A stretch of DNA of 64,000 nucleotides, taken from the NCBI RefSeq assembly GCF_049896725.1, contig NZ_JAFCUW010000005.1:296515-360514 (forward strand), read 5' to 3'. Shown here piece by piece: positions 9,317-50,658 of this stretch (the first letter of the stretch is position 1; each line of letters opens with the position of its first letter). The position numbers and the translations under genes were made by a program. The DNA comes from Massilia sp. PWRC2 (GTDB lineage Bacteria > Pseudomonadota > Gammaproteobacteria > Burkholderiales > Burkholderiaceae_D). Below the pieces are notes generated by a model. It was not told the origin of the DNA, did no database searches, and was given only the letters and a program-made list of their open reading frames with translations.

Positions 9317-9455
9317 GATGTTCCTTCGGCTGATGGTGCCAAAAGAATAGCATGGCATATTGCCGATGCACATCGCGAATTGATATGCATGTCGGCGACC
9401 AATTAAAAAGGGCACAGAGCGGCTGCCGCTCTGTGCCCTCGGTCATGCCGACAAC

Positions 9456-22697: not shown

Positions 22698-22982
22698 TTA
22701 ACCGCGCGGCGCCGCTGCCGCCCGCGCCAGTGCCCGTTCATCTGCCAGCGAACGCATTTTTTGCGCGGGCGTCAGGCGCCGTGCCGCCACCTTGACCACC
22801 GCTACGTGTGACGGGGTGGCGACGGCGGTCGCGCGCGGGGTTGCTGCTGTAGCCGCGGCCGCAGCCGCGGCCGCGGCAGAGGCAGCGGCGTCGGCCGTGT
22901 GCTGCGGCAGCATGCTGGCGCTGCCCACTGCCAGCGCGGCGGCGAGGGTAAACACGGCTTCGGCATGGTGCAGGATGTTCAT
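22698..22982 (-). CDS. Small Ala-rich putative secreted protein (speculative).
   Basis: A 94 aa ORF with a signal-like N-terminus. Otherwise it is low complexity. Confidence 0.2.
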   Translation of the reverse strand: MNILHHAEAVFTLAAALAVGSASMLPQHTADAAASAAAAAAAAATAATPRATAVATPSHVAVVKVAARRLTPAQKMRSLADERALARAAAAPRG

Positions 22983-23163
22983 GGCTGGCCTCTCAAGGTG
23001 GTCGGTGGATGCTTCACTGTAGGCAGCTGACCGGCAGCGCGCCAGCGCCGTGCGACAGACGGCAGATCGGACGCGCCGGAATGCGCATGGCGGCGACCAA
23101 ATGCGGCTGCTGTTTCAGCGCCCCTCCGCTAAGCCCGTGCAGGCAGCGCAGCTGGACCGGCGC

Positions 23164-23218
23164 GCTGTTTTTAGGCTGTTTAAACGCTGCTTTAACGCTG
23201 TTTTAACGCTGTTTTAAT
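23164..23218. promoter_or_regulatory. Three direct repeats of gctgttttaacg in an otherwise GC-rich stretch, about 25-80 bp upstream of the start of the large + strand operon; a candidate operator or UP-like element.
   Basis: The sequence reads ggctgtttaaacgctgctttaacgctgttttaacgctgttttaattg. It is the only AT-rich island for several kb. Confidence 0.45.
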
Positions 23219-23245: not shown

Positions 23246-26200
23246 ATGGCAGGCGCGATTCGAACTTTTTTGCAGGCGGTCCGGGCCCACCGCGTGGCCT
23301 GGCGGCGATCGCGCAACCTGCAGCGCAGGGGGCCAGCGGTGCGCCCTTCAGTCAAGGCCGCCGCCGCAGTGGCTACTGCTGCCGCGCTGCGCCCGGCGCG
23401 CCTGCCGGCTGGCAGTGCCGCGTGGTGGATCAGTATGGCCGGCGTGCTGGCCGCCAGCGTCGGCGCCGTCGTCATCGTCCGCCATGCACACAGCCTGGCG
23501 CGCGCGGTCGAGCTCACCAGCGCGCCGGCGGCGGGTGTCGTGCGCCCGCTAGCAGCATTTCAGACCCTGCTACCGGGCGCCGCCCTGACGGTGCCGGCCG
23601 ATGGCAGCATCGAGGTGCTGCAGCGCGGCAGTGCCAGCGTGCTGGTGCTGGGCGCCGGCACCCGCGCCGCGCCGCTGCTGCGCATCGACCTGTGCCAGCA
23701 GCTTGGCAGCGCCAGCCCGGCGGCGCGGCTCCCCATGGTGCCGCTGCGGATCGGCTACCCGTTCGCTGACGTCGTCCGCTGGGCTGGCGCCGGCGCCGCC
23801 CCCGCGCTGCGCGCAGTGGTACTCGGCAGCGCCGACAGTGCGATGCCGAAGGTGCGCATCAGCGGCAATCCCGGCGTGACCGGCGAACCCCTGCAGCTGC
23901 GCTGGGAGGGCGCCAGCGCCGCTACCAGCTGGGTTGGTGCCGCTGCCGCTGCCGATGCCAATGCTGGCAACGCCGGCGGCGAGCACGGCGCAGTTGCCTT
24001 CCATGGCGACGGCTGGCTGGTCTGGGGCGCAGCCGCGATCCACTTTCAGCGCCAGGGACAAGCGCCATCGGCGCCGGGCGGCGGTCGCTGTGGCGCCGGC
24101 CAGTTGCTGCTGCAAGTGGTGCGCGGCGGCGCCACTGGCACCACTGGCACCACTGGCGGCACTGGCGTTGGCGGCGCGCGCGGGCAAATCACGGCATATG
24201 CGCGCGACAAGGCGTCGGCGTCGCTGTCGGCCTGGCTGGCGCCGGGCGATTACCAGGTCGCTGGCGCCGCCGCCGCCGATCTGGAAGACCACGCCTTGTT
24301 CACGCAATTGCGCGCGCGCGGCATGCTGCGGCTGGGCGCCGGCGGGCTGGCCGAACTGGCGCCACGCGACCTGCCGGCGTGGCGCGCCGCACCGGCGCCG
24401 GCGCGCGCGGCCGAACTGGCCAGCTGGGACGCGGTGCAGTTCGATGACGGCGCCCGCAGGCTCTACAAGCACCTGTACCGCATGGCCGATGGCGCCTACC
24501 TGCGCGAACAGCTACGTATTTTTAATGGTGAGCAGCATCTGCTGGCATGGCGCCTGCCAGCGTCGGCCGCAGCGTCGGCCTGGCAGGCCGAAGTCGCTGG
24601 CGAGCGCGCCAGCATCAGTACTGCCATGCCGGCGGCGGCGACGCGCCTGTTTGCCGGCGTCGCCCCGGGCTGGCAACCCTGGCAGCGCATCGAACGCTGG
24701 CCGGCCGCCGCCGCCGCCGGAGCGGTGCGGCTGACCCTGAACGTCACGCCGGCTGCCGTTAATGCACCGATTGAACTGATGCTGATCGGCCGCGCCAGCG
24801 CCGTCACTGGTGCCGTCATCCGCCAGCGCCGCGCCGTCTGCGATGGCCGCGCTTGCGCTGGGACTGCTGCTGGCACTGGCACTGGCGCCGACGCCGCCCA
24901 GCTGCTGCTGCTCGATGTGTTGCCGGGCGCGCGCAGCGTGTCGCTGGCGGTGGCGCCGCTGGACATGGCCGCGCTGGCGCAGCCGGCCGACCAGCAGTAC
25001 CGCCACCTGCGGGTCACTGACGGCCAGCTTGACTGGCAGCCACTGGCGAGCGCCGCGCCGGTGTCGCCAGCTGCCAGCACCGCCGCTTCAGCCGGCCCCG
25101 CCGGCCCCGCCGGTCCCGCCGGCCCCATCGCGCTGGTCGACCGCAACGGCGTCTCCCTGTGGGCCGATGGCGCCCCCAGTGCCGCTGCCAGCGCTGCCGG
25201 CCTGGCGCCGTTGCTGGGCTTGGGCGCCGATCACACCAGCAGTGTGGCCGGCATGCTGGCGCGCCTGCCGCCACCGGCGCCGGGCGCCGGCCACCATGCC
25301 CGCCTGAGCCTCGATCTGGCCCTGCAGGCGGCCAGCAACGGCGCCGTCGACTGCATCGGCATGCGTCACGGCCGCTGGGATGGCGTCAGCTGCACAGGGG
25401 CCCAGCCGGTGCCGCCCGGCCGCCATGCGGGCATGGTCATCATCGACGCCGAAAACGGCGACATCCTGGCCGCCGCCGGCGCCGGGGGCGTGGCCGTCAA
25501 TGCCGCCAACTGGCTCGAGGTGCGCAATTTCGACCGCAGCGATCCGGCCCGCAGCCCGCTGCGTCTGCCCGCCCTGCAGCACGATGGCGGCGCCCACGCC
25601 AGCCCTGGCTCGACCTTCAAGGTGATCAGCGCGCTGGGCCTGGAGCAGGCGGCGCAGGGCGATGCCCGCCTCGACGCCCTGCTGGCCGGCCAGCCGCTGG
25701 CCGACATCAATCGCCTGGCGCGCCAGCACGGCTTTGCGTTCGATACCAGTGCCGCCATCTATCCCATGCAAGAGCGCAGCGCCCACATCACCAACTACCA
25801 GCGGCAAAGCCTGGAGCGCCACGCCGCCAATGGCCGGCTGGGGCTGGCGCAGGCGCTGACCTTCAGCCAAAACACCTGGTTTGCCTGGCTCGCTGAACTG
25901 AGCGACGGCAGCCTGTTTGGCCGTGCCGATGGCGGCGTGCCCGACCTGCAGGCGCTCGAGCCGGGCGCCCTCGATGCCGTGCGGCCGATTGTCGGCATGG
26001 CGCGCCGGCTGGGCTTTGGCACGGCGCTGCGCCTCGATGGCGGCCTGTTGCCAGCCGATTTTCGCTGGGGCCAGTGGGATGCCCTGCAGGCGAGCGCATC
26101 GAACATCGACCCGGTGCACAGCCGCCACGAACTGCGGCAGATGGCGATCGGCCTGCGCATGCAGGTCACGCCGCTGCAGATGGCGCTGGCCGCCGCCGCC

Positions 26201-26614
26201 GTCGGCCAGGGCAGTGTGGTGGTACCGCGCCTGCTGCTGGCACTGGACCAGCGCGCGGCCAGGCCAGCGGCCGCGCAGGCGCTCGGCGTGCGCCTCGAGC
26301 GCATCCGCGCCGGCATGAAAGGGGTGGTCGATGTCGGCACCGCCGCCAGCGCCTTTGCCGATGTGCGCCTCGCTGGCGTGCGGCGCGGTCTGTTTGGCAA
26401 AACCGGTACCGCCCCCACCGGCGACGGCAGCGCCGCCACGGTCTGGTTCACCGGCTGGCTGGAAGCGGGCAGCCTGCCAGGGCAGACGCACCGGCTGGCG
26501 CTGGCGGCGTTTGTCAGCCACTCGGCGGGCAGCGGCGGCGAACATGCGGCGCCGATGATCGCTGCGGTGCTGGCGGCCAGCGCCGGCGAGAAGCCCAAAC
26601 AGAGGGGTAAATAG
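23246..26614 (+). CDS. Large membrane-anchored protein with a C-terminal class-B penicillin-binding-protein transpeptidase domain and a novel N-terminal region of about 750 aa.
   Basis: In the C-terminal 340 aa the motifs run in order: MVIIDAENGDILAAAG, SxxK (STFK), SxN (SQN), the PBP signature QVTPLQMA...GQGSVVVP, then KTG(T). There is one N-terminal TM (AAWWISMAGVLAASVGAVVIV). The N-terminal region has internal low-complexity repeats (TGTTGTTGGTG, GPAGPAGPAGP). Confidence 0.8.
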   Translation: MAGAIRTFLQAVRAHRVAWRRSRNLQRRGPAVRPSVKAAAAVATAAALRPARLPAGSAAWWISMAGVLAASVGAVVIVRHAHSLARAVELTSAPAAGVVRPLAAFQTLLPGAALTVPADGSIEVLQRGSASVLVLGAGTRAAPLLRIDLCQQLGSASPAARLPMVPLRIGYPFADVVRWAGAGAAPALRAVVLGSADSAMPKVRISGNPGVTGEPLQLRWEGASAATSWVGAAAAADANAGNAGGEHGAVAFHGDGWLVWGAAAIHFQRQGQAPSAPGGGRCGAGQLLLQVVRGGATGTTGTTGGTGVGGARGQITAYARDKASASLSAWLAPGDYQVAGAAAADLEDHALFTQLRARGMLRLGAGGLAELAPRDLPAWRAAPAPARAAELASWDAVQFDDGARRLYKHLYRMADGAYLREQLRIFNGEQHLLAWRLPASAAASAWQAEVAGERASISTAMPAAATRLFAGVAPGWQPWQRIERWPAAAAAGAVRLTLNVTPAAVNAPIELMLIGRASAVTGAVIRQRRAVCDGRACAGTAAGTGTGADAAQLLLLDVLPGARSVSLAVAPLDMAALAQPADQQYRHLRVTDGQLDWQPLASAAPVSPAASTAASAGPAGPAGPAGPIALVDRNGVSLWADGAPSAAASAAGLAPLLGLGADHTSSVAGMLARLPPPAPGAGHHARLSLDLALQAASNGAVDCIGMRHGRWDGVSCTGAQPVPPGRHAGMVIIDAENGDILAAAGAGGVAVNAANWLEVRNFDRSDPARSPLRLPALQHDGGAHASPGSTFKVISALGLEQAAQGDARLDALLAGQPLADINRLARQHGFAFDTSAAIYPMQERSAHITNYQRQSLERHAANGRLGLAQALTFSQNTWFAWLAELSDGSLFGRADGGVPDLQALEPGALDAVRPIVGMARRLGFGTALRLDGGLLPADFRWGQWDALQASASNIDPVHSRHELRQMAIGLRMQVTPLQMALAAAAVGQGSVVVPRLLLALDQRAARPAAAQALGVRLERIRAGMKGVVDVGTAASAFADVRLAGVRRGLFGKTGTAPTGDGSAATVWFTGWLEAGSLPGQTHRLALAAFVSHSAGSGGEHAAPMIAAVLAASAGEKPKQRGK

Positions 26615-26695: not shown

Positions 26696-28027
26696 ATGCG
26701 TCTGCCGGGAACACGGTATCAGGAACACGGCTGGGAACTGGTGCGAAAACTGTTGGGGCAGTGTTCGTTGCAGGCCTGCGCCGCTGGCCTGCCCGCACGG
26801 ATTGTCAACGTCAACGTTAACAACAGCGCCAGCGCCGCGCTGGCGGACTGCCTGGACGACTACATCGAGCGTTGCAGCGGCGCCTTGCGCGCCAGCGCCC
26901 GCCAGCCACGCGCCGCCGCCGATGGCAACAGCTATGGCGAGAGCGTGCTGGAACTGGCGCTGGCGCTGCTGTGCGAGCTGCAGGCGCGGCCAGCCGACTG
27001 GCACGCCCTGGCGGCGGCGCTTGGCGCCGACGCGGCCCGTCTGGGCCATTTCTGGCAGCAGCCCGGCGGCGAGGCCATGCTGCGCAAAAAATTCAACGAT
27101 ATGTATGCGCTCCTGCGCGACAAGGTCGATTGCGACAATTACATCGTCGCCTGCGGCCGCCCGTGCAGCGCCAACCGCATGTACGCTTACCGCATGCTCG
27201 ACACCGCATATGCCGACATTGCCCGCCTGTTCGACAGCTGGCGCGAGGCGCCCGAGCAGGTGGCGGCGATTCTAGGGCGCGCCGTCGATGCCGCTGCCGC
27301 CCCCATTGAAGTGCGCCAGATGAAGTCGATCGGCGACTGCCAGGCGGCGTGGCTGATCGCCTGGAGCGCCTCGCGCGAGCGCTTCACCGGTGCCGCTGGC
27401 CCGCTGCACACCCACTCGAAGCGTTTTGCCAATTTAAAAAACAGCCCCGATAAAATCGCCGCCATGCTGGCGGAAATCGGCGACTATGAACAACTGTCGG
27501 CCAACGGCGACGGCCCGTGGCAGCAGGATGCCGCCGACGCCAGCGCCTGGCTGGACGATCTGGCGCGGGTGTTGGACGACGCGGTCGATGATGACGGCGA
27601 TGGCGGGCGCGTGCTGGCCCGGCCCGCCGCCGCCGCCGCTGCCGATGCCGATGCCGATGCCGATGGCGCCGACCACAGTGCAGCGCGCAGCGCACTTTCA
27701 GCGCCCCCCAGCTACGTTTCAGTGGCGCTGCTGGCCGGCGACGCTGCTCTCTGGGCGGCGCGGGCGATGGCCGGCTGTTCGCTGCCGGTGCAGCTGGCGG
27801 TCTATTTGAAGCTGGTCGGGGCACGCGACGACTGCTACCGGGCCGAATGGCTCGACGGCGTCAGCGGCGAGCTGCCCACCATGGCCCAGCTGGCGGCCCT
27901 CGACGGCGTCTCGCTGCCAACCCTGCGCAAGCGGCGCGACAGTGCCATCGCGGCGCTGCAGGCCGGTACGCAGGCCGGGCCGCGGCCGGGCGGCGGCACC
28001 GATGAACCAATCAGGAGAGCACAGTGA
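26696..28027 (+). CDS. Hypothetical protein with a C-terminal sigma-70 region-4-like HTH.
   Basis: The 443 aa sequence ends in ...ELPTMAQLAALDGVSLPTLRKRRDSAIAALQ, which resembles sigma-70 region 4. Its stop overlaps the next start (ATGA-type coupling at 28024). Confidence 0.5.
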   Translation: MRLPGTRYQEHGWELVRKLLGQCSLQACAAGLPARIVNVNVNNSASAALADCLDDYIERCSGALRASARQPRAAADGNSYGESVLELALALLCELQARPADWHALAAALGADAARLGHFWQQPGGEAMLRKKFNDMYALLRDKVDCDNYIVACGRPCSANRMYAYRMLDTAYADIARLFDSWREAPEQVAAILGRAVDAAAAPIEVRQMKSIGDCQAAWLIAWSASRERFTGAAGPLHTHSKRFANLKNSPDKIAAMLAEIGDYEQLSANGDGPWQQDAADASAWLDDLARVLDDAVDDDGDGGRVLARPAAAAAADADADADGADHSAARSALSAPPSYVSVALLAGDAALWAARAMAGCSLPVQLAVYLKLVGARDDCYRAEWLDGVSGELPTMAQLAALDGVSLPTLRKRRDSAIAALQAGTQAGPRPGGGTDEPIRRAQ

Positions 28028-28617
28028 ACAAGCGGGTAAGCGATTCATCCACCCTGGCGCGCAAGCTCGCTGGCGCGGCGCTGCTGGCGCGCCGCGTCGA
28101 CGGTGATTATCTGGTGCTCAGTGACGCCACCTTGTGTGCGGCCATCGATGGCAGCTGCCCCTTGCGCAGCGCCGAAGCGCAGGCGCTGGCGGGCTCGCCG
28201 TTGACTTTGCGGCGCCTGCGCCTGCTGGCCGATGGCATGCGGGCGACGCCGTGGAGCGCCAGCGCCGGCATGCTGCGCGCTGCCGCCAGCGCTGACAGTT
28301 CGATGGCAGTCCTCGAGACCGACGACGGCCACTGGGCGCTGCACTTTGTTTTGCAGGATGGCCAGTGGCAGCTGGTGCTCAAGCTCGACGCCGCCGCGCC
28401 GTTTGCCGCCCGCCTGCTCGCTGGCGACGGCGCGCCCTTCATCGAAGTGCGCGACGGCGCCGGCGGCCTGCTGCTGCAGGGACGCCTCGATGGCGACGGC
28501 GAATGCGAACAGGCGTGGCCATGCGCGCTGGCGCCAGCCTTGCATTTCCAGCAGCACGGGGCGCGCTTTACGGTGACGCCGGTGACCCTGGTGGCGCCGG
28601 CGGGGCCGGCGCGATGA
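28024..28617 (+). CDS. Hypothetical protein (197 aa).
   Basis: Coding statistics and GC3 support it. It is translationally coupled to its neighbours, with stop/start overlaps at both ends. No recognisable domain. Confidence 0.5.
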   Translation: MNKRVSDSSTLARKLAGAALLARRVDGDYLVLSDATLCAAIDGSCPLRSAEAQALAGSPLTLRRLRLLADGMRATPWSASAGMLRAAASADSSMAVLETDDGHWALHFVLQDGQWQLVLKLDAAAPFAARLLAGDGAPFIEVRDGAGGLLLQGRLDGDGECEQAWPCALAPALHFQQHGARFTVTPVTLVAPAGPAR

Positions 28618-29783
28618 TCGAGCTGGCCAGCCGCTGGTGGCAGCGCTCGCGCCGCGCCGCGCCGCCCGACAATGCAGCGCTGGGCGAGAGCGTGCTGGCC
28701 ATCGCGGTGCCCGCTGCCAGCGTGCAGGGCAGCGCCTGCGATGCGGTGCTGATCGCCGGTGGCGGCCGCAGCCGCCGCAGCAGCGCTGCGGCGCCGCTGG
28801 CGCCCGAGCCGGACGAGACGGCCTGGCTGTTTCACCCCGGTCCCTACCACTGCGTGCTGCGGCCCTTTGCCGCCGCCCCCGAGCTGGGACTGCAGCTGTG
28901 CTTTGTCATCGATGGGTCTGACCCGCGGCTGGCGCAGCAGCGCTTTGACCTTTACCTGGCCAGCGAAGTGCAGGGCAGCGCGGTGGTTCTGGCGCTGGCG
29001 CCGTTTTGCGCCGCCCTCGAAGCGGCGCTGCAGCAGCAATTGACGCAAGGACAGCTGGAGCTGCCGCCTTGCACCAGCGTGGCCGAATGGAACCGCTTTC
29101 GCGCTGGCCTGAACCGCCTGCTGTACCAGCGCTTTGGCGTGACGCTCGACGATTGCCTGCCGGTCGATCTCGGTGACCGCATTGATTTTGCCGCCATGCT
29201 GGCCGCGCGCGTTGCCAGTGCACCAAAAGCGCAGCAGGATGCCGAAGTGGCGCCTGCAGCGGCGCCAGCACAATCACAATCACCAGCACCAGCACCAGCA
29301 CCAGCACCAGCGCCGGCCGCCGTCGACGCCGCGGCCCTGCGCCGCCTGTTCCTCGAGCTGCCGTGCCTGACGGCCGCGCTGCGCGCCGCCGTGCTGCAAG
29401 ATGAGACGATGGCGGCGAACACGGCGCAAACTGCGGCGCTCGATGGGTCCCCGCAATTCCGCCGCCAGCAGGCACTGTGGCGTCGTCTTGACCTGGTTAA
29501 CTTGCAGGTCAGCACCATGCCGGCGCTGGCGCTCGCTGCGCCCGGGCTGGCGCTCGGCCGCAGCGAGCAGGCGCGGCGTGCCCGCCACAGCCAGCGCGCC
29601 TGCGCTGCGCTCGACGATGGCTGGGCGCTGCTGGCCCGGCTGGACGGCACTCCCCGCCGCGCCGCCGACACTGCCGCCGCTGCCAGCGACGACGCCGAGC
29701 GCATCGTCGCCAACCTCGAATTCGATCTGCAGGAACGGCGCGCGATTGCCGCGCCGGACAGCGGCGAGATGGCAGCGTCATGA
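28614..29783 (+). CDS. Hypothetical protein (389 aa) with a PAPAPAPA linker.
   Basis: It starts at MIELASRWW (an ATG overlapping the upstream stop). No recognisable domain. Confidence 0.5.
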   Translation: MIELASRWWQRSRRAAPPDNAALGESVLAIAVPAASVQGSACDAVLIAGGGRSRRSSAAAPLAPEPDETAWLFHPGPYHCVLRPFAAAPELGLQLCFVIDGSDPRLAQQRFDLYLASEVQGSAVVLALAPFCAALEAALQQQLTQGQLELPPCTSVAEWNRFRAGLNRLLYQRFGVTLDDCLPVDLGDRIDFAAMLAARVASAPKAQQDAEVAPAAAPAQSQSPAPAPAPAPAPAAVDAAALRRLFLELPCLTAALRAAVLQDETMAANTAQTAALDGSPQFRRQQALWRRLDLVNLQVSTMPALALAAPGLALGRSEQARRARHSQRACAALDDGWALLARLDGTPRRAADTAAAASDDAERIVANLEFDLQERRAIAAPDSGEMAAS

Positions 29784-30811
29784 GCGCCGCCGCACCTGTA
29801 CCATCGGCCAGCGCCAGCGTGTGCAGCGTCCTGGCCGATGGCAGCACGCTGACGGTGACGGCCACGCGCCGCCCGCGCGCCAACCGCGCCGACATCAAGT
29901 GCAGCGTGCCGGCCTCGCCGGCACTGGCCGCGCGCCTGCAGCAGGTGCTGCAACTGGCGCGTCTGACCGAAGCGCGCTTCGACAGTCGCGATCAGGTGGT
30001 GGTCAGTTTTGATGCCACCCCTGCCGATCTGGAGCGCGACTGGGAACTGCCAGCAGTGCTGGCCGACCGCCTGGTGCGTGGCCTGTATCAGCCACGCAAA
30101 GCGGTGTGGGCAAATGGCTGGTCGGACCACTGGCAGCTTGGCCGCATCGATGGCAGCGCGCTCGCCGCTACCGATGCGCCAGACGTACCGGCGGGGACGC
30201 TGGTGGGCGGGCCTGACGGCCTGGCTCACCTGGGCATGTTGACCGGCCGGCCCGACCAGGCCGGGGCGGTATCGAGCGCACGCACCTGGTTCCCGCTGCA
30301 CAGCGGTGGCGTCAACGACAGCCTGTGCTGGGTCGAGGTCAGCGTCTATCCGCTGCTTGCTGGCGCCGCTGAAGAAGAAGAGTGCATCGCCGTGCCGGGG
30401 CTCGATGTGCTGGGGCAGACAGCGGTGCGGGCGACGCTGGCGGCGGCGCGCCGCTTCGACCCCTATGGCAGTGGGCGCTGGAACAGCGTGGTGCGCTTCG
30501 GCGCGTCGCGCTTCCAGGGCAATTCGTGGCAACTGGCGGCGGTGATGGCCGATCGGCTGGCGCGCGGGCGCGAATTCGTGCCGCGCGGGCGCATCCTGGC
30601 CAGCGGCTGTTCGGCCGACTGGCAAAGCGGCCGCGTCGACACCGTCGAGGCGCGCGAGGCCAAGCTGGCGCTGCTGCTGGCGCAGGCGGTGACGGGGGAC
30701 CGCCTGCTGTTGCCGGCGGCGTGGGAGGCGGCACTGCCAGCCGGCTTTGTCGAAGCGCTCGCCGCCAGCGGCGCCAGTGTCGCCTGTGTCGAACGCATTG
30801 GCATGATTTGA
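29780..30811 (+). CDS. Hypothetical protein (343 aa).
   Basis: It overlaps the upstream stop by 4 bp. No recognisable domain. Confidence 0.5.
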   Translation: MSAAAPVPSASASVCSVLADGSTLTVTATRRPRANRADIKCSVPASPALAARLQQVLQLARLTEARFDSRDQVVVSFDATPADLERDWELPAVLADRLVRGLYQPRKAVWANGWSDHWQLGRIDGSALAATDAPDVPAGTLVGGPDGLAHLGMLTGRPDQAGAVSSARTWFPLHSGGVNDSLCWVEVSVYPLLAGAAEEEECIAVPGLDVLGQTAVRATLAAARRFDPYGSGRWNSVVRFGASRFQGNSWQLAAVMADRLARGREFVPRGRILASGCSADWQSGRVDTVEAREAKLALLLAQAVTGDRLLLPAAWEAALPAGFVEALAASGASVACVERIGMI

Positions 30812-30917: not shown

Positions 30918-33083
30918 ATGCAGATGTTTGGAATGGGCGGCGCCAAGTGTCCCCGCTGTGAGCACAAGAATGCCGGCACGGCCGCTTACTGCGCGCAGTG
31001 CGGCCTGCTGCTGGGCGCGCCCCGCAATGCGCCCGTGCTGGTCGATAATCGCTGGATCGCCGGCGCTGACGAACTGGCGGTGTTCTTCGGTGTGCAGGCG
31101 CTAGCGGGCCTGTTTGTCAAGACCTTGCGGGTACCGGCCACCACCCGCGCCTATATTCTTCAGGGTGGCGCCGCCACCGAGGTGCCGCAGGGCGACTACG
31201 AGATCGAAGGTTTTTTTAGCCGCTTGAACAACCTGCTGCGCGACGACCACGCCGAAATCCTGATCACCCGCAGCACCCCGGTGGTGCTGGTGTTTGCCTT
31301 CGACGAGCTGGCCAGCGCCGAGCACCTGGCGCTGTCGGTGCAGCTGTCGGTGAGCGTGCAGATCGAACAGGTGGCCGCGTTTGCGCGCCACTTCATGACC
31401 ATGCCGGGTACCGTCAGCAGCGCGCAACTGGTCGAACTGCTGGCGCCGTCGGTGCGCCAGCTGGCCGCCGAATTCATCGCCGGCCAGTCACTGCGCGACA
31501 TGAGCCGCAATGGCGCGCTGCGCGCCCAGTTTGACGAACGCCTGCAGGGCGGCCTGCAGCAGCGCCTGGCGCTGTATGGGCTGGCGGTGGTGCAGGTCGA
31601 CACCCTCAGTCTGAAACACGATAAATTCGACGCCCACCGTGCCCGCATCGGCAGCCTGTGGCTGCTGGCCGACGAGCGCAACGTCGAACTCGAACATGCG
31701 GGCCACCTCGACGCACTGTATGACGACGGCGAGTGGCAAAAAATCCGCCGCGCCGAAGCCGACAGCCGGCTGCGTTACCGGCGCGCCGAACTGGCGCAGG
31801 ACGATGCCATCGACAAGGCCGAACTGTCGCTGCAAAACAGCGAACGCCTGCAGGCGGTGCGCGCGCGTGAAATCGAACTGTACTCGCGCATCGTCGAAGC
31901 GAAAAACCGCCAGCAGGCCATCGCCGCCGGTGCCGGCGAAGTGCTCGCTGAACTCGAACACGAGCAGGCGCAGAAAAACGCCGCGCGTGGCGATGTCGCT
32001 GCCGACTGGGCCCATTCGCGTCACATCGCCCAGATCCGCATGCGCACCGAACTGGAATTGTCGCAGCAGCAGGCGGTGGAAAGCCGCCAGCTGGCGCAGC
32101 AGCGCTTTTCGCACCAGCTGTTGCAGCAGCAGATCGGCAACAAGGTGGCGCAAGCGCTGCTGATCGAAGATGAAACGGCCAAGCGCAATGAACTGGCGCG
32201 CCTGCGCCAGGCGCGCCAGAGTGCCGACGGTCGCCAGGCGGCCATCGAGCACGAGCAGCACATTGCGCGCCACCAGGCGCTGGCGCTGGTCAATGCCGCC
32301 CATGCGCGCGAGGCGGCGCGCCTGCAGGAATGGGAAGACCAGCTGGCGCAGGAGCGCGCGCGCGAACTGGCGCGCAGCAGCGGCGCCCAGGACGCCCTCA
32401 GCCAGCACGAAAAACTGCTGCGTACCATCGCCGCCGACGATCTGCACAGCCGCAACGCCGACCAGCGCATGCTGGCCATCGAACAGGCCCGCCACCAGCA
32501 GGGACAAGACAGCCAGGAAGCCCAGTGGCAGCAAGAGCTGCGCCGCATCGGCGCGCAGCGCGAAGCGCGCTTTGCCGAGCTGACCCAGCAGGCCGACCTG
32601 GCGCGCCTGGAGATCGCCCGCGCCGACAGCCTTGGCGCCATGAGCGACACTGCCAAGCTGGCGCTGGCCGGTGCCGCCAATGCAGCGGTGCTGGCCGATT
32701 ACCTCAAAACCCAGGTCCACGCCGGCATGGGCGCCGACCAGCTGGCGGCACTGGCGGCGGTGGTGGGCGCCACCAATAGCGTCACGCCGCAGGAAGCGCT
32801 GCGGCTGGCCGACCTCCGCGAGCAGCGCGACAGCGCGCGCCGCGAGCGTGACATCGACAAGGACCGCCAGCACCAGCTCGAGCTGATCAAGCTGCAGAAT
32901 GATGTCAACAAGGCGGCGCTGGCGGCGCAGTCGCAGCTGGGGATCGGCGTCGCCGGCGGCGGCGCTGCTCCTGCCGTTGCTGCGGCCGCGCCTGGCGCGG
33001 ACGTGCCGCGCTGCCCGCACGGCCATCCGGTGCGCGCCGGTGAGCGCTTTTGCGGCCACTGCGGCGCCGCCCTGGGAGCGTAA
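30918..33083 (+). CDS. Double zinc-ribbon protein with a long Q/R/E/A-rich coiled coil (possibly a band-7/SPFH-like segment).
   Basis: An N-terminal CPRCEHKNAGTAAYCAQCG and a C-terminal CPHGHPVRAGERFCGHCG zinc ribbon flank about 450 aa of predicted coiled coil. Confidence 0.55.
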   Translation: MQMFGMGGAKCPRCEHKNAGTAAYCAQCGLLLGAPRNAPVLVDNRWIAGADELAVFFGVQALAGLFVKTLRVPATTRAYILQGGAATEVPQGDYEIEGFFSRLNNLLRDDHAEILITRSTPVVLVFAFDELASAEHLALSVQLSVSVQIEQVAAFARHFMTMPGTVSSAQLVELLAPSVRQLAAEFIAGQSLRDMSRNGALRAQFDERLQGGLQQRLALYGLAVVQVDTLSLKHDKFDAHRARIGSLWLLADERNVELEHAGHLDALYDDGEWQKIRRAEADSRLRYRRAELAQDDAIDKAELSLQNSERLQAVRAREIELYSRIVEAKNRQQAIAAGAGEVLAELEHEQAQKNAARGDVAADWAHSRHIAQIRMRTELELSQQQAVESRQLAQQRFSHQLLQQQIGNKVAQALLIEDETAKRNELARLRQARQSADGRQAAIEHEQHIARHQALALVNAAHAREAARLQEWEDQLAQERARELARSSGAQDALSQHEKLLRTIAADDLHSRNADQRMLAIEQARHQQGQDSQEAQWQQELRRIGAQREARFAELTQQADLARLEIARADSLGAMSDTAKLALAGAANAAVLADYLKTQVHAGMGADQLAALAAVVGATNSVTPQEALRLADLREQRDSARRERDIDKDRQHQLELIKLQNDVNKAALAAQSQLGIGVAGGGAAPAVAAAAPGADVPRCPHGHPVRAGERFCGHCGAALGA

Positions 33084-33092
33084 CAGGCCACG

Positions 33093-35426
33093 ATGTCAGC
33101 GCCGCCGCCCACCCCGATGCCGTCCGCCCGCGACAAGTTGCGCGAGCTGCGCGCGCTGCATGAAGATGGCCTGCTCAGCCAGCAGGAGTTCGACAGCCGC
33201 CGCAACGCCATCCTCGACGCTGCATATGCACCGACGGCGCCACCTGCAGCGTCAGCCACAGCGTCAGCAAGGGCGGCGCCGGCAGCTGATTCTTTTGGGA
33301 TGGCGCGCCCGGGCACCGAGCTCGGTCTGATGGTGGGCCAGGAAATCGGCCCGCAGCAGCGCCGCTACCGGCTCGAACGCCTGATCGCCCAGGGTGGCAT
33401 GGGCCAGGTGTGGCAGGCGCTCGATCTGGCCACCCACCAGGAACTCGGTCACAGCGCGTCGGTGGCAGTGAAAATCCTGCCACCCCAGCTGACCGTCAGC
33501 GCCACCCATGCGCGCCTGCTGCTGGAGGAGGCGACCCAGGCGCGCCGGCTGGCGCATGAGCACATTGTGCGGGTCTACGAATGGGCCCAGGACCCGGCCA
33601 CTTCCAGCTATTTTTTGATCATGGAATGCCTCGAGGGCGAAGACCTCGACAGCCTGCTGGCGCGCGAGACGCGCATGCCCTTCGACCGTGCGCTCGGTCT
33701 GCTCGAACCGGTCGCCGGCGCGCTCGCCTATGCGTGGGACAAGCACCGGCTGGTGCACCGCGATATCAAGCCGGGCAATGTGTTCGTCACCAGCAGCGGC
33801 GACGTCAAGCTGCTCGACTTTGGCATCGCCGCGCGCGCGCGCTCGTCGGCCAGCAGCATTGGCCTGGAAGCGCCGGCCGATTCCGGTACCGCCGGCTACC
33901 GCGCGCCGGAAGCCGGTGTGCACCAGCGCAAACCGGCGCCCACCCAGGATGTCTATGGGGTGGCGGTGATGCTGTACCAGATGCTGGAAGGGCGCCTGCC
34001 ATTCGATGGCCCGCGCGACCCTGCCAGCACGCTGACGCCAGCGCGTCCGCCCGGTCTGAACGATGCCCAGTGGCGCCTGCTGCAGACGGGCTTTGCCATC
34101 GATGCGGCGCGGCGCCCCGCCAGCGTGCAGAAATTGCTGGTGCAGCTGCGCGCCGCAGGCAGCGCGCCAGCGTCGTCGTCGGCGGCGGCAGCAGCAGCGG
34201 CAATGGCGCCGGCAGCGGTGCGGCCGGCCGCCAGTGCCGTCGAACTGGCCGCCGCCAGCCAGCGCGAACAGCTGCGCGCGCAACAGCAAGCGCAGCGCAC
34301 GCTGGAAGCGGCGGCCGCCGTCCAGCAAGCCAATCGCGAGCGGCGCGAACAGGAAAAAGCCCAGCGCCTGCTGCTCGACGCCGCCCGCAGCGAGCGCAAG
34401 GAAGCGCTGCGCCGCCAGCTGCTCGAACGGCGCGCGCTCGATGCCGAGACAGCGCGCATCGAGCGCGAAGAGGCGCACAGGAAGGCGCTGCAAGCCAGAG
34501 CGGCAGCGGCCTACCGCCAGGAACAGCAGCGTGCGCGCGCCGAGGTGGCCGCCCGCGTGCAGGCCGAACTGGCGGCGCTACTGCCGTCAGCATCGAGCCC
34601 GGTGGCCGACAGTGAGGGGGTGCTGCGCGACCGCTTTCTCGATGGCTCGGCGGTGGCGCCCGACCTGGTGCTCATACCCACCGGGCGCTTTCAAATGGGT
34701 TCGCCCGAGCATGAGCGCAAGAAGGCGATCGACGCCGGCTCGCAGCAGTCGTGGGTCGAGCGCGAAACGCCGCAGCGCTGGGTCGGCATCGAAAAGCCCA
34801 TCGCCATGGGCCGCTTTCCCATTACCGTCGGCCAGTGGCGCCTGTTTGTTGCCGCCAGCGGCTGGCAGGCGCCGGCCCAATTCAATTGGGCCGAGCCGGG
34901 TTTTCGCCAGGCTGACGATCACCCGGTGGTGGGCGTGAGCTGGCATGACGCCGTCGCCTACGCCGCCTGGCTGTCAAGCATGACGGGCCAGCGCTACCGC
35001 CTGCCCAGCGAAGCCGAATGGGAATACGCCTGCCGCGCCGGCACCCGCAGCGCGTTTAGTTTTGGCGACTCCATCAGTACCGATCTGGCCAACTACGACG
35101 GCAACTTCAGCTACAACGACAGCCCGAAAGGGGTGTACCGCAAGGGCACCACAGCGGTCACGCAATTCCCGCCCAACCAGTGGGGGCTGTACGACATGCA
35201 CGGCAATGTGTGGGAATGGGTGCAGGACGTGGTGCACGATAATTACCAGGGCGCGCCCAATACCGGCCGCGCGTGGGAAGATGGCGGCGATCCGGGACGG
35301 CGCATCTTGCGCGGCGGCTCGTGGCTGTACAATCCGCGTTATCTGCGTTCGAGCCTGCGCAACGGCTTTTCGGCCACGCGCAGCAACGGCATCATCGGCT
35401 TTCGGCTGGCGCGCGAGCTCCTTTAA
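33093..35426 (+). CDS. Hanks-type Ser/Thr protein kinase fused to an N-terminal SHOCT domain and a C-terminal formylglycine-generating-enzyme (FGE-sulfatase/SUMF1-like) domain.
   Basis: The SHOCT domain reads KLRELRALHEDGLLSQQEFDSRRNAIL. The kinase domain has the motifs VAVK, HRDIKPGN, DFG and GTAGYRAPE. The FGE domain has VGVSWHDAVAYAAWLS, RLPSEAEWEYACRAGT, WGLYDMHGNVWEWVQD and RGGSW. Confidence 0.9.
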   Translation: MSAPPPTPMPSARDKLRELRALHEDGLLSQQEFDSRRNAILDAAYAPTAPPAASATASARAAPAADSFGMARPGTELGLMVGQEIGPQQRRYRLERLIAQGGMGQVWQALDLATHQELGHSASVAVKILPPQLTVSATHARLLLEEATQARRLAHEHIVRVYEWAQDPATSSYFLIMECLEGEDLDSLLARETRMPFDRALGLLEPVAGALAYAWDKHRLVHRDIKPGNVFVTSSGDVKLLDFGIAARARSSASSIGLEAPADSGTAGYRAPEAGVHQRKPAPTQDVYGVAVMLYQMLEGRLPFDGPRDPASTLTPARPPGLNDAQWRLLQTGFAIDAARRPASVQKLLVQLRAAGSAPASSSAAAAAAAMAPAAVRPAASAVELAAASQREQLRAQQQAQRTLEAAAAVQQANRERREQEKAQRLLLDAARSERKEALRRQLLERRALDAETARIEREEAHRKALQARAAAAYRQEQQRARAEVAARVQAELAALLPSASSPVADSEGVLRDRFLDGSAVAPDLVLIPTGRFQMGSPEHERKKAIDAGSQQSWVERETPQRWVGIEKPIAMGRFPITVGQWRLFVAASGWQAPAQFNWAEPGFRQADDHPVVGVSWHDAVAYAAWLSSMTGQRYRLPSEAEWEYACRAGTRSAFSFGDSISTDLANYDGNFSYNDSPKGVYRKGTTAVTQFPPNQWGLYDMHGNVWEWVQDVVHDNYQGAPNTGRAWEDGGDPGRRILRGGSWLYNPRYLRSSLRNGFSATRSNGIIGFRLARELL

Positions 35427-40656: not shown

Positions 40657-41130
40657 TCAGCGTTGGCGCGCGTGCGCTTCTTCTGCGCGCCGCAACCACA
40701 GGCTGCTGACCCAGCCGTCGAGCTGGCGCTGGCCGATGCTGGCGCGCACCTGCCACCAGTCGCCTGCGCGCACGCCGGTGGTGGTGACCGTTGCGCCGGC
40801 CGGCACCAGCGCCAGGCGCGCGCCATCGATGCTGGCGCTGGCGCGCAGATTGAGGTCGTCGAAGGCGCGGTAGCTGGTGCGCTGATACGTCGGTGGCGTA
40901 CTCGCAGCGGCGCTGCGCGCGGCGGCTTGACCGGCCAGCTGTGCTGGCGCTGGCGCCGTGGTCGGTGGCGCCAGCGCCAGTAGCGCACTGCCGATGCCCC
41001 AGCTGCCCGCCGCCACCAGCGTGATCGCTTTCAGATTGGGGCGGCGCCACCAGTGTGCTGGCGTGCAGACCGAGGCCAGCGCCAATGTCAGCACGAAGGC
41101 GGCGGCGAAGATGGCAAACAGGTAGCCCAT
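40657..41130 (-). CDS. Membrane-anchored bacterial SH3 (SH3b) domain protein.
   Basis: An N-terminal TM is followed by an SH3_3-like segment (YRAFDDLNLRASASIDGARLALVPAGATVTTTGVRAGDWWQVRASIGQRQLDGWVSSLWL). Confidence 0.6.
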   Translation of the reverse strand: MGYLFAIFAAAFVLTLALASVCTPAHWWRRPNLKAITLVAAGSWGIGSALLALAPPTTAPAPAQLAGQAAARSAAASTPPTYQRTSYRAFDDLNLRASASIDGARLALVPAGATVTTTGVRAGDWWQVRASIGQRQLDGWVSSLWLRRAEEAHARQR

Positions 41131-41139
41131 GTGCCTGCC

Positions 41140-42753
41140 TCAGGCGTCGAAACGCAGCACGTAGTGACCGGCCACCAGGTGGTGCCCGGGCGGCAGCAGA
41201 TACGGCGCGGCGCCGTCGAGGGTGGCGACGAAATCTAGCCGGGCGTCGAGGTGATAGAGCGCCTGGGTGGCAGCGAGCCGGCCGATCTGAAAGCCGCCGG
41301 CGGTGGCCTCGAAACTGAAGGCATTGCGCGACAGGCCGATCCGGTCGGCGCTGGCGCTGTCATCGGTGAGCCCAGCGGCGCTGCGCACGAAACGGGGCGA
41401 GTCGAGCACGCGCAGGGCCGCCAGCATGGGGGCGCCACGGCCGAACACAAAGCGGGCGCCGCCGGGTACCGGTAATCCCGGCGGGTTCGACAGCCTGGGC
41501 TGCGCCGGCAAGATCAGCAGCGCGCAATAGCGCTCGGCCATGGCGGCGGCGACGCTGGCCAGGCCGATGCTGGCGCCATCCATCGGGCTGAAGCTCGACG
41601 GTACGCTGATCGCTTCGCGGCCGGCGGCGGTGATCGCCATCAGCGCATCGTTGCCATCGACGGCAAAGCGGATCACCGCTTCGACCCCGGGCGCGGCCAC
41701 CGCCAGCTGTTCGTCAAAACCAATTTCGAGGGCGGCGGCGCCGGTTTCGCGGTAGCGCGACAGGCGCGGCAGGGCCAGCGCGGCCAGCGTCACGCGCTGG
41801 CCGGCCAGCGGTGCATACGTGGCATCGGCGCTGTCAAGCGCGCCAGCGCCGCGCGCGGTCGCGGGCGCCGCCGCCAGTGGCAGCGCGGTGGCGTCGCTCG
41901 CTGCCGGTACCTCGGCGCTGCTCGCTGCCGCTGTCTCTGCGCCGCGCTGCTTCCAGACTGTGGCGGCACGCGCGGGCGCGCCTGCGCTGGCGGCGCTCGC
42001 AATCGGCGCACGCGCCGGCGCCGGCGCCCCCAGCCGGGTCACCTTGAGCAGCAGGCGGCGCGCCGGCGTCAAGCCAGCCTTCGAGCGGATTACGTAGTAG
42101 CCGCCCAGCGGATCGAAACTGCAGTCGAAGGCTTGCTTGGGCCGCACTTGCACTTCGAGGGGAGCGTCGGCGCCGTCGTTGATCAACAGGATGGCCGGTT
42201 CACCGTTGCTGCCACCGGCAGCATCGGCAGCATCGGCAGCATCGGTAGCAGCGGCACCCACCAGCGCCAGCCGCTGGTTCTGGTAGATCGGGCACCGTGT
42301 CTGCCAGATCGCGCTGTCGCTGGAGGTGGCGACCTGGTAGAGCACCGCTTCGCCGGCCGCTGGCAGATAGACGGCGTGGCCGAAGCGCACTTCGACCTGG
42401 CCCGCTGCGAGCGACTCGGCGCCGACGACGTCGTAGCGCACTTCGTCGTTGCCGAGCAGGTCGCCGAAATCCTTCTGGTGCAGCGCCGCTAGCGAAGCGG
42501 CCAGGTCGCGCACGCGCGCGCCGCGCGTGAGGTGGCGGTCATCGTCGACGTCGTCCTGCGGCAGCATCAGGGTGATGTGCGAAAAGCAGCGGGTGGCAGC
42601 GCGCCCGCGCTGCTCGCGTGGCGAGCGCTCGAGCAGGTCGCGCAGCAGCGGGCGGCGCGCAAACAGCGCCAGGCCGGGCGCCTGCCACAAGGCTTCGGCA
42701 TTAAAGACGTCGGCCACCTTGCCTAGCACTTCGTGTTGTACGTAGACGGGCAT
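41140..42753 (-). CDS. Hypothetical protein (537 aa) co-operonic with the FHA-SEDS gene, possibly with a degenerate FHA-like C-terminus.
   Basis: The proposed start MPVYVQHEVLGK at 42753 has the RBS GGAG upstream and overlaps the SEDS gene's 3' end. There is a 9-bp repeat encoding (DAA)n. The C-terminal FVFGRGA...LSRNAFSFE segment is FHA-like, but this is a weak call. Confidence 0.5.
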   Translation of the reverse strand: MPVYVQHEVLGKVADVFNAEALWQAPGLALFARRPLLRDLLERSPREQRGRAATRCFSHITLMLPQDDVDDDRHLTRGARVRDLAASLAALHQKDFGDLLGNDEVRYDVVGAESLAAGQVEVRFGHAVYLPAAGEAVLYQVATSSDSAIWQTRCPIYQNQRLALVGAAATDAADAADAAGGSNGEPAILLINDGADAPLEVQVRPKQAFDCSFDPLGGYYVIRSKAGLTPARRLLLKVTRLGAPAPARAPIASAASAGAPARAATVWKQRGAETAAASSAEVPAASDATALPLAAAPATARGAGALDSADATYAPLAGQRVTLAALALPRLSRYRETGAAALEIGFDEQLAVAAPGVEAVIRFAVDGNDALMAITAAGREAISVPSSFSPMDGASIGLASVAAAMAERYCALLILPAQPRLSNPPGLPVPGGARFVFGRGAPMLAALRVLDSPRFVRSAAGLTDDSASADRIGLSRNAFSFEATAGGFQIGRLAATQALYHLDARLDFVATLDGAAPYLLPPGHHLVAGHYVLRFDA

Positions 42754-45125: not shown

Positions 45126-46105
45126 GCGATGGCCTGCTCGCGCGCCCGCCTGGCTGGCGCCATTGCGGCGGCCAGCAGGCGGGCAATCGCCAGCGCATGC
45201 GGCGGCCGCGCCGCTGGCTGCGGTGCCAGCAGGGTGCGCAGCAGCAGCAGCGCATGGCCAGCTGCGCCGCGTGCGGGCAAATCGTCACAGTGGCGCACGA
45301 ACAGCGCCGCTTCGTCATCGGCCAGGGTGTGGCAGGCTGCGGGCTGGTTTGCCAGACCGTGCTGCTGGCGCCAGGCCTGGGCCGCATCGATGCAAAAGCG
45401 CAGTGGCACGCCACCCGTGATCAGGTAGTACAACAGGGCGCCCAGCGTAAAATAATCGGTGGCGGCGCAGGTGACGTACCCGCTGCCGTCGTGGCCGGCC
45501 GTGGCCGCCCACAGCTGTTCCGGCGCCTGCCAGTGGGGAGTGCCGGCATAGGGATGGGGAGCGCGGTCGGCCAGCGCCCGGCTGGTACCGAAATCGGCCA
45601 GCTTGAGGGTGGTGTCGCGTGCGCCTCTGCTGAGCAACAGGTTCGAGGGTTTCAGGTCGAGGTGGCGGCGGCCGTACTGGTGCACCTTGGCCAGCGCCTG
45701 GTTGACCTGGCCGATCCACACCAGGGCCTGCAGCGGATCGACCGTGCTGCCGGCGGCGCGGCGGCATGCGACCCAGGCGCCAAGATCGCCGCCGAGCAGC
45801 TCGAGCGCCAGCACCGGCAGGCCGGCGTCGACGCCGCTGTCGAGCAGGCGCACGATGTGGCGGCCGTCCCACGGCGCCAGCTGGCGCAGGAAGGCCAGTT
45901 CGTCGTGGGCACCGTCGATCCAGCGCTGGCGCTGGTCAGGGACGGCCTGCACCATCTGCGCCTGGTTGACAAATTTGAGGGCCACCGCCGGCCCGGCCGG
46001 CAAGCGGGCGGCGCGCCATACCAGGCCGTAAGCGGAACTGGCCAGCGGCGCGTCGAGCCGGTAGCTGTGTGACGCCAGTGTAATAATGGTTCCTGCTGCC
46101 AGCAT
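45122..46105 (-). CDS. Hanks-type Ser/Thr protein kinase (no PASTA domains).
   Basis: The kinase motifs VALKFV, HLDLKPSNLLL, DFGTSRA and GTPHWQAPE are present. The start is MLAAGTII at 46105. Its stop overlaps the SEDS start (ATGA). Confidence 0.85.
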   Translation of the reverse strand: MLAAGTIITLASHSYRLDAPLASSAYGLVWRAARLPAGPAVALKFVNQAQMVQAVPDQRQRWIDGAHDELAFLRQLAPWDGRHIVRLLDSGVDAGLPVLALELLGGDLGAWVACRRAAGSTVDPLQALVWIGQVNQALAKVHQYGRRHLDLKPSNLLLSRGARDTTLKLADFGTSRALADRAPHPYAGTPHWQAPEQLWAATAGHDGSGYVTCAATDYFTLGALLYYLITGGVPLRFCIDAAQAWRQQHGLANQPAACHTLADDEAALFVRHCDDLPARGAAGHALLLLRTLLAPQPAARPPHALAIARLLAAAMAPARRAREQAIA

Positions 46106-46254
46106 GGCTTCCCGCTTCACGACCGGTTGTGGACACGGCGTGTGCCGTCCGCAAAGGCTTAGCAGGGGGCTGCAGCAATATCGGTCAGTAAAGCAACAAT
46201 GGGACAGGCGCGCGCCCATCCCATTGTTACTTCATTGCAGTGGCAGCCGGTCGA

Positions 46255-48115: not shown

Positions 48116-48202
48116 GGGCACAGCACTGGCCGGCAGCGCGGTGGCGCCGCTATACTGTTGTTCGTCAGTATTTTTTAACCACCCACTTGTTGAAGGAACC
48201 GC

Positions 48203-50628: not shown

Positions 50629-50658
50629 GGTTGCGGTTGCGGTTGCGGTTGCGGTTCC
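50629..50658. repeat. Hexanucleotide repeat (ggttgc)x5 upstream of the VanZ-like gene.
   Basis: Read directly in the sequence. Confidence 0.8.

Follow-up and report, generated by a model that had tools for sequence, protein, structure and literature searches.

An atypical class-B-type penicillin-binding protein of Massilia with a large extra periplasmic region and a genomic link to an extended SEDS polymerase and Ser/Thr kinases

A stretch of 64,000 nucleotides from Massilia sp. PWRC2 (contig NZ_JAFCUW010000005.1, positions 296,515 to 360,514 of the forward strand; referred to here as the window) encodes a protein of 1122 residues, g1, in which the transpeptidase (TP) domain of a penicillin-binding protein (PBP) is preceded by a very large N-terminal region. 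What does such a protein do, and what could the additional region be for? The SEDS-class B PBP (bPBP) pairs RodA-PBP2 and FtsW-PBP3 are core cell-wall synthases and major antibiotic targets. To our knowledge, no wiring to Ser/Thr kinases has been described for proteobacterial SEDS-bPBP pairs. Based on sequence comparison, structure prediction and analogy with known systems, we propose, with moderate confidence, that g1 is the transpeptidase partner of a non-canonical, kinase-associated SEDS-bPBP synthase.

The window has a GC content of about 70% and contains numerous spurious long open reading frames (ORFs). The gene g1 coincides exactly with the ORF at 23246..26614 on the forward strand, and its GC fractions of 0.77, 0.60 and 0.84 at the first, second and third codon positions (GC1, GC2 and GC3) are coding-like. 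Together with 87 full-length homologues, this identifies g1 as a real gene for a class-B-type PBP, conserved among Massilia-like bacteria of soil, and not as a chance ORF. The protein has one hydrophobic segment, which follows an Arg-rich N-terminal tail and is covered by a helix in the AlphaFold2 (AF2) model. The single N-terminal transmembrane (TM) anchor and the periplasmic bulk expected of a bPBP are thus present, and the periplasmic location proposed in the initial annotation is borne out. In an alignment of 46 homologues (50-67% identity), the six cysteines C150, C282, C532, C537, C703 and C716 are all invariant, which fits an oxidizing, periplasmic compartment. In the cytoplasmic tail, R20 and R21 are at least 90% conserved in the homologue consensus. 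The gene and the parts of its product, all on the forward strand, are as follows.

23246..26614, forward strand: g1, an atypical class-B-type PBP of 1122 residues (ORF, GC3 0.84, 87 full-length homologues)
23246..23416, forward strand: cytoplasmic tail, residues 1-57, Arg-rich, with an AF2 helix at residues 2-26 and the conserved motif ARRTAWRRARNLRAG
23417..23485, forward strand: single TM helix, residues 58-80, predicted N-in and C-out (hydropathy 2.04; AF2 helix 57-88)
23543..24265, forward strand: module A, residues ~100-340, predicted beta-rich, with a variable (TGT)n linker at residues 295-310 (AF2, profile matches)
24284..24529, forward strand: module B, residues 347-428, predicted helical, common to a distant class of relatives (AF2, BLASTP to P0225 and P0237)
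24545..25045, forward strand: module C, residues 434-600, predicted beta-sandwich, with the invariant C532-x4-C537 pair
25046..25126, forward strand: predicted disordered linker, residues 601-627, including (GPA)4, with a predicted local distance difference test score (pLDDT) below 50 at residues 602-622 and a DNA repeat of four 9-bp units
25127..25417, forward strand: putative short PbpA-like pedestal, residues 628-724, with the motifs LVDRNGxxLW and RLSLDLALQ and a C703/C716 loop (AF2, profile, Foldseek)
25418..26590, forward strand: TP domain, residues 725-1115 (PF00905; invariant motifs; Foldseek match to 4mnr with E 2.7e-14 and a target-normalized TM-score, TMt, of 0.63-0.70)

The initial annotation had ascribed to the C-terminal part every hallmark of an acyl-serine transferase, and all of the motifs it quoted were located: VIIDAENGDILA at residue 731, STFK at 789, SQN at 874, QVTPLQMA at 973, GQGSVVVP at 987 and KTGT at 1052. 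The length given there for the catalytic part, 340 residues, was too short, the TP domain spanning about 390 residues. PF00905, at residues 848-1107 with an E-value of 1.2e-15, is the sole Pfam match of g1, and the SxxK, SxN and KTG motifs by which a bPBP is recognized are all found in the TP domain. Residues S789, T790, K792, S874, N876 and K1052-T-G-T1055 are invariant in the 46-homologue alignment, and the equivalent catalytic residues in the distant class are either invariant or at least 90% conserved. Since both the active-site serine and the KTG lysine are invariant, the suggestion that g1 might be a non-catalytic relic, which hinged on the loss of one of them in homologues, is settled in favour of a functional active site. 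In comparison with the orthologues, the TP half evolves slowest, with 60-78% identity versus 37-53% for the N-terminal half. The protein is not an ordinary PBP2 or class A enzyme: the PBP2/MrdA equivalog model TIGR03423 matches only the C-terminal part, at 61.5 bits versus a cutoff of 455; no GT51 domain (PF00912) was found in g1 by Pfam; and PBP_1a_fam scores 13 bits versus a cutoff of 509. A PDB search with the single g1 sequence returned nothing significant, and a PADLOC scan of g1 gave no match.

The pedestal that usually precedes the TP domain of a bPBP had been described as replaced by other sequence. This view is not borne out by the structural models. In the AF2 model, residues 628-706 form a compact strand/helix unit running into the TP domain, with pLDDT mostly above 80 and blocks of 82-96 over residues 631-720. 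A profile built from residues 625-730 and the equivalent stretch of distant relatives was run against 177,635 PDB sequences and retrieved almost only class-B PBPs, the exceptions being a few Mss116 helicase chains at E ~1.5. The matches sit just ahead of the TP domain, at the vLTLDxxLQ strand-helix, with E-values of 4.3e-4 for Thermus thermophilus PBP2 (6pl5_B), 0.007 for 7rcw and 0.1 for 4mnr. The best PDB matches of the full-length AF2 model by Foldseek are short-pedestal PbpA-type class-B PBPs, namely the Eggerthella structure 4mnr (E 2.7e-14, TMt 0.63), the Atopobium structures 4r3j and 4jbf, and Mycobacterium tuberculosis PBPA (3upo, 3lo7 and 3un7; TMt 0.64-0.66), with PBP3, PBP2 and SpoVD close behind in the ranking. 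We conclude from models and profiles that g1 appears to keep a reduced, PbpA-like pedestal, and that the inserted novelty would sit between the TM helix and this pedestal.

How large, and how unusual, is the inserted region? AF2 was run both on residues 85-632 (pLDDT 76.8) and on the full-length protein (pLDDT 77.8). Constraint on the N-terminal region is evident from its numerous invariant Trp, Gly, Asp and Cys residues among the 46 homologues. Pfam gave no match to residues 1-632 even at E <= 10, and for residues 1-630 the PDB returned nothing by sequence, whether searched with g1 alone or with the family profile. Comparison of modules A1, A2, B, C and the pedestal with hhalign revealed no internal duplication, all probabilities being below 4%. 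The claim of a large N-terminal region that matches no family or fold, including the BlaR1/MecR1 sensor and PBP_dimer, has therefore held up in kind, and not in size: once the cytoplasmic tail, TM helix, linker and short pedestal are subtracted, about 520 residues are left instead of 750. The repeats noted in this region do exist, GPAGPAGPAGP starting at residue 617 and TGTTGTTGGTG at residue 297. Both are encoded by 9-bp tandem DNA repeats (25091-25126, four units; 24128-24167, 4.4 units) and fall in the least conserved, gap-rich stretches of the alignment. A collagen-like reading of (GPA)4 was rejected on the mean identity of 0.19 and gap fraction of 0.52 at residues 601-620, the 9-bp DNA repeat and the pLDDT below 50. 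As judged from the alignment and the model, (GPA)4 and (TGT)n are species-specific linker expansions that are predicted to be disordered. The region is also Ala/Gly-rich, as had been stated, with 36% Ala+Gly in residues 1-750; this is hardly a peculiarity of the region, the C-terminal part having 29%, and largely reflects the genome composition of ~70% GC.

An exhaustive search of 1.84 billion representatives with a profile of residues 85-632 found 148 proteins (representatives at 50% clustering). All ten complete proteins scanned from this search also have a C-terminal PF00905 domain. Two size classes can be distinguished, one of ~1000-1170 residues covering the whole novel region and a rarer, distant one of ~780-990 residues that has only modules B and C at its N-terminal side. 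P0225 (810 residues), for example, is colinear with residues 347-1109 of g1 at 27% identity (BLASTP, E 6e-39). The distant class aligns only from residue 347, so module A is an addition specific to one lineage, the Oxalobacteraceae subfamily, and modules B and C, the short pedestal and the TP domain appear by sequence to define the wider family. Outside the family, the next-best sequence neighbours of the distant class are SEDS-PBP fusions, PF21922-containing PBPs and conventional PF03717-containing bPBPs, with a drop from >430 bits to <=115 bits. Among species-representative genomes, at least 176 have a relative. Eighty of these were listed and their loci fetched; with few exceptions, the 80 bear the names of Oxalobacteraceae or of unclassified Burkholderiales/Pseudomonadota metagenome-assembled genomes, and one is named Burkholderia sp. 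The genera among them include Massilia, Telluria, Duganella, Pseudoduganella, Rugamonas and Zemynaea, and Janthinobacterium fluminis is also present. In public annotation, members are labelled only 'penicillin-binding transpeptidase domain-containing protein' or 'FtsI/PBP2', some UniRef names reading 'beta-lactamase', and no description of the g1 family or of its operon was found in the published literature.

The link to a glycan polymerase comes from the neighbourhood of both classes. In the window, a gene for a SEDS protein lies 16 kb downstream of g1, in an operon (40657-46219, reverse strand) that is convergent with the g1 operon and syntenic in Massilia sp. R2A-15. From its first gene to its last, it consists of the following genes.

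45122..46219, reverse strand: Ser/Thr kinase of 365 residues, the first gene of the convergent SEDS operon, homologous to the kinase of the distant-class locus L084
42723..45125, reverse strand: large, N-terminally extended SEDS protein (FtsW/RodA/SpoVE) of 800 residues, with PF01098 at residues 481-773 and ~12 hydrophobic segments
41140..42939, reverse strand: protein X, longest ORF 599 residues, homologous to proteins of 553-624 residues beside PBP-like/SEDS pairs elsewhere
40657..41130, reverse strand: protein of 157 residues with a bacterial SH3_3 domain, the last gene of the SEDS operon, found at the same position in locus L086

The true start of protein X is probably nearer to 42750; its orthologue in L086 has 510 residues. 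In the alignment, the QxDF motif and, at the C-terminus, the GxPxxFxSxGxS motif are retained by the SEDS protein, which carries an extension of ~270 residues (residues ~31-298) after its first hydrophobic segment. By eye, this extension shows an FHA-like sequence pattern, to which no Pfam match was obtained. Both halves of the protein match SEDS proteins of the distant class. In all four distant-class loci examined, a protein of 814-843 residues is encoded directly downstream of the PBP-like gene. The one in L084 is a SEDS protein by Pfam (PF01098) and shows homology to its counterparts in L085 (E 2e-78) and L087 (E 3e-71). A protein X of 553-624 residues adjoins the PBP-like/SEDS pair in all three distant-class loci with DNA sequence, and both a Pkinase and a PP2C phosphatase are encoded in two of the four loci. 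Massilia sp. R2A-15 repeats the layout of the window, with the PBP (1,621,252-1,624,485) and the SEDS protein (1,643,613-1,645,991) on opposite strands. In eleven PBP-like/SEDS pairs, the contigs of the two members are equal in length; in one of the eleven, on a contig of 37,371 bp, the two genes (locus tags JWQ01_4427 and JWQ01_4443) are 16 genes apart. From the adjacency in the distant class and the linkage in the window and R2A-15, it follows that the trio of PBP-like protein, large SEDS protein and protein X is conserved, its genes lying side by side in the distant class and being separated, but within ~20 kb, in Oxalobacteraceae.

These observations can be combined into a proposed mode of action. 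The g1 protein is a bitopic inner-membrane, class-B-type PBP whose catalytic half would consist of a short pedestal and a PbpA-type D,D-transpeptidase domain, and which has gained a family-specific periplasmic region of ~520 residues, with beta-rich, helical and beta-sandwich modules, between TM helix and pedestal. It most likely cross-links peptidoglycan stem peptides by an acyl-serine mechanism at the STFK motif, as the cognate partner of the N-terminally extended 800-residue SEDS glycan polymerase encoded 16 kb downstream. The conserved cytoplasmic protein X of ~550 residues would work with g1 and the large SEDS protein, and the Ser/Thr kinases of both operons would supply control. The extra periplasmic modules probably serve as a spacer or as a docking scaffold for the SEDS extension, peptidoglycan or another partner, and the conserved Arg-rich cytoplasmic helix of g1 probably links it to the six other products of the g1 operon, all of them cytoplasmic.

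That operon is a seven-gene set, g1-g7, which is headed by g1 and colinear in 80 of the 80 fetched loci, where these were long enough, across several genera. The six genes that follow g1 in the window are listed below.

26696..28027, forward strand: g2, 443 residues, without TM helix or known family, with an HTH-like (helix-turn-helix) C-terminal segment and conserved synteny
28024..28617, forward strand: g3, 197 residues, no family assigned; its start overlaps the g2 stop
28611..29783, forward strand: g4, ~390 residues, no family assigned
29780..30811, forward strand: g5, 343 residues, no family assigned
30918..33083, forward strand: g6, 721 residues, with a zinc ribbon, an SPFH/Band7 domain and a second zinc ribbon
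33093..35426, forward strand: g7, 777 residues, with SHOCT, Ser/Thr kinase and FGE-sulfatase domains and without a TM helix; last gene of the operon

From g2 to g5, neighbouring genes overlap or directly adjoin each other, and a gap of 9 nt separates g6 from g7. A clear TM helix is found only in g1 among the operon products. Of the first 24 residues of g2, nearly every one is invariant in 15 species, and SLPTLRKRRDxAI is the HTH-like segment at its C-terminus. No credible match to g2-g5 was obtained in Pfam (lenient scans included), NCBIfam or PADLOC (run on g2, g3 and g5), and the PDB returned nothing for profiles of g2, g4 and g5. Haemoglobin-alpha matches of g4 fall in an Ala/Pro-rich variable segment and were rejected as compositional. 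Upstream of g1, psd is present in the window as well as in two of the three loci for which genes had been called. A gene for a WXXGXW-repeat protein with Asp-rich, calcium-binding-like repeats (21796-22563, reverse strand) is divergent from g1, and it occupies the same divergent position in almost all of the fetched g1 loci.

We have compared g1 and its surroundings with known systems. The actinobacterial PbpA-RodA-PknA/B-PstP-FhaA/B locus offers a parallel arrangement (PMC6554272): the distant relatives of g1 likewise sit with a SEDS protein, a Ser/Thr kinase and a PP2C phosphatase. The PbpA-type PBPs of actinobacteria (M. tuberculosis PBPA, Eggerthella 4mnr, Atopobium 4jbf/4r3j) share the SxxK/SxN/KTG chemistry with g1, as well as a short pedestal without the head subdomain, the distance from LVDRNG to LSLDLALQ being ~57 residues in g1 versus ~78 in 4mnr. 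However, the identity is only ~19%, and PbpA-type proteins have ~490 residues with the pedestal directly after the TM helix, whereas in the 1122 residues of g1 ~520 extra residues lie between the two. As far as the models allow a judgement, g1 works like a PbpA-type module and is not a plain member of that group. It differs further in its conserved cytoplasmic tail and its Gram-negative, betaproteobacterial host, and its putative partner is a SEDS protein of ~800 residues with the ~270-residue N-terminal extension. In contrast to the PbpA/RodA locus, the PBP of the g1 lineage heads a separate seven-gene operon without a SEDS gene. The window contains two kinases and the SEDS protein; the SEDS operon has a metallophosphoesterase (Metallophos) gene as its neighbour, no PP2C gene being found at that place, and the FHA trace is only a 'faint' match in an orthologous neighbour. 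With PBP2 (MrdA)/RodA and PBP3 (FtsI)/FtsW, the g1 family has in common the bitopic topology, the TP domain, the LTLDxxLQ strand-helix (6pl5_B, E 4.3e-4; 7kis, E 7.8e-5) and the genomic pairing with a SEDS protein. Unlike PBP2 and PBP3, g1 stays below the MrdA equivalog cutoff (61 versus 455 bits), lacks PF03717 and the head subdomain, and has large unrelated N-terminal modules in a kinase-associated context. The metagenomic SEDS-PBP fusions and PF21922 PBPs, which come next after the family in similarity to the distant class, have neither module B nor module C, and their SEDS protein is fused instead of adjacent.

The main rival to an enzymatic role is that of an envelope sensor, since g1 is the sole periplasm-exposed product of its operon. 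In this case, the PBP domain would act as a receptor for beta-lactams, muropeptides or uncross-linked stem peptides, in the manner of BlaR1/MecR1 or PASTA kinases, and the signal would be relayed through the TM and the cytoplasmic helix to g2-g7. With all other operon products in the cytoplasm, signalling of this kind is conceivable. The only clear TM helix of the operon makes g1 the sole link to the periplasm, its conserved and predicted helical cytoplasmic tail is unusual for a bPBP, the operon ends in a soluble kinase, and g2 has the HTH-like C-terminus. Like BlaR1/MecR1, g1 is a membrane protein with an extracytoplasmic penicillin-binding domain. However, it has one TM helix and, by Pfam (no match to residues 1-632 at E <= 10), no multi-TM M56 zinc-protease domain; similarity to the class-D-like sensor domain is at chance level (1nrf, E 0.32; OXA-type, E ~0.2), the folds matching bPBPs instead. 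The three fully conserved catalytic motifs are what one would expect of an enzyme, although they are also compatible with a sensor that works by acylation. The closest relatives are SEDS-adjacent, as enzymes are, and this genomic linkage to a SEDS polymerase speaks for an enzyme rather than a sensor. We consider a sensor unlikely. A stand-alone peptidoglycan-remodelling hydrolase, that is a D,D-carboxypeptidase, an endopeptidase or a membrane-bound beta-lactamase using acyl-serine chemistry without a SEDS partner, is less probable again. PF00905-type domains do include hydrolases, some UniRef names read 'beta-lactamase', and the SEDS gene is outside the g1 operon in the Oxalobacteraceae lineage, but by fold and by profile g1 matches class-B transpeptidases and not class C/low-molecular-weight PBPs or class D enzymes, its TM anchor and what is left of the pedestal are characteristic of bPBPs, and the distant relatives adjoin SEDS genes.

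An anti-phage or conflict system, with g1-g7 as a defence module and the PBP-like protein as its envelope sensor or effector, would account for the match of g7 to the PADLOC kinase models PD-T4-6 (E 7.6e-56) and mad6, and for the SPFH, zinc-ribbon and many orphan proteins that are common in defence islands. Yet only the generic kinase domain of g7 is recognized by PADLOC, the five other operon products scanned (g1, g2, g3, g5 and g6) giving nothing, and the colinearity of 80 of 80 loci across genera, with the WXXGXW gene nearly always present and psd upstream, is the pattern of vertically inherited core genes and not of a mobile island. This explanation is slightly more improbable than that of a hydrolase. 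As for a decayed PBP or an annotation artefact, high-GC DNA does yield many long spurious ORFs and the TIGR03423 score is far below its cutoff; the GC3 of 0.84, the 87 full-length homologues and 148 representatives at 50% clustering, the invariant catalytic residues and the confident AF2 model nevertheless leave this reading effectively refuted.

Several points weigh against the synthase role that we favour. The motif LVDRNGxxLW resembles the first, DRNG-type pedestal motif of class-B PBPs, a match without statistical significance, and neither PBP_dimer (PF03717) nor PBP_dimer_2 (PF21922) was matched by the whole of g1 at E <= 1 or by residues 1-632 at E <= 10. The Foldseek edge of PbpA-type structures over PBP3 and PBP2 is small (E 1e-14 versus 1e-12). 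A Foldseek search with the model of residues 85-632 gave no hit at E <= 1e-3, and the role assigned to the modules is a guess. No role in peptidoglycan synthesis is obvious for the six co-transcribed genes g2-g7, four of which match nothing. In Oxalobacteraceae, the SEDS gene lies outside the g1 operon, 16-19 kb off and on the opposite strand, and co-regulation with g1 is therefore not shown.

What is new in g1 is a class-B PBP catalytic module with an unprecedented periplasmic insertion of ~520 residues and an unusual genomic wiring. The locus points to an additional, lineage-specific synthase in which PBP and SEDS protein alike carry new extracytoplasmic modules and control is kinase-linked, resembling that of actinobacterial PbpA/RodA/PknB; it would have six co-transcribed partners, four of which match nothing known. 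A bolder reading, which we offer tentatively and with some doubt, is that the PBP-like protein, the extended SEDS protein of ~800 residues and protein X might constitute an undescribed third type of SEDS-bPBP synthase, operating under Ser/Thr kinases and phosphatases in Gram-negative bacteria (Oxalobacteraceae and a Desulfobacterota-like metagenomic clade); the modules of ~520 residues might then be a new docking apparatus for partners or substrates, and g2-g7 a cytoplasmic control module acting through the PBP tail. Cultivable Massilia, Duganella and Janthinobacterium provide a genetically tractable case for the role of an accessory peptidoglycan synthase and for the purpose of large non-pedestal domains in bPBPs, and the ~520-residue region without detectable PDB relative is a target for structural biology.

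Some further features of these loci deserve mention. Next to the SEDS operon, both in the window (46982-49636, forward strand) and in Massilia sp. R2A-15, lie genes for a calcineurin-like metallophosphoesterase and a Peptidase_M28 protein; the metallophosphoesterase could be the phosphatase counterpart of the kinases. The FGE-sulfatase domain recurs near the PBP family, being fused to the kinase in g7 and, in the P0246 locus, to a Peptidase_C14-PEGA protein beside a distant-class PBP-like/SEDS pair. A protein of 1099 residues with a Tubulin_2 domain (PF13809) is encoded in L085 (19346-22433, reverse strand), a few genes from the distant-class pair. Elsewhere in the window, a VanZ-like family protein of 487 residues (50625-52088, forward strand) and an M1 aminopeptidase of 938 residues (6599-9415, reverse strand) are encoded, for which no relation to g1 was seen.

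In the divergent intergenic region upstream of g1, five tandem 11-bp units (CGCTGTTTTAA) occupy window positions 23163-23217, ending 29 nt 5' of the g1 start. With a spacing of one helical turn, this array could be a candidate for regulator binding; as a conserved operator it was rejected, being absent 5' of the 80 orthologues checked. A small, Ala-rich protein of ~94 residues with one hydrophobic segment is encoded divergently from g1 at 22698-22982 on the reverse strand. It gave no credible match in a lenient Pfam scan, and tblastn matches to it are present in about one third of the fetched loci.

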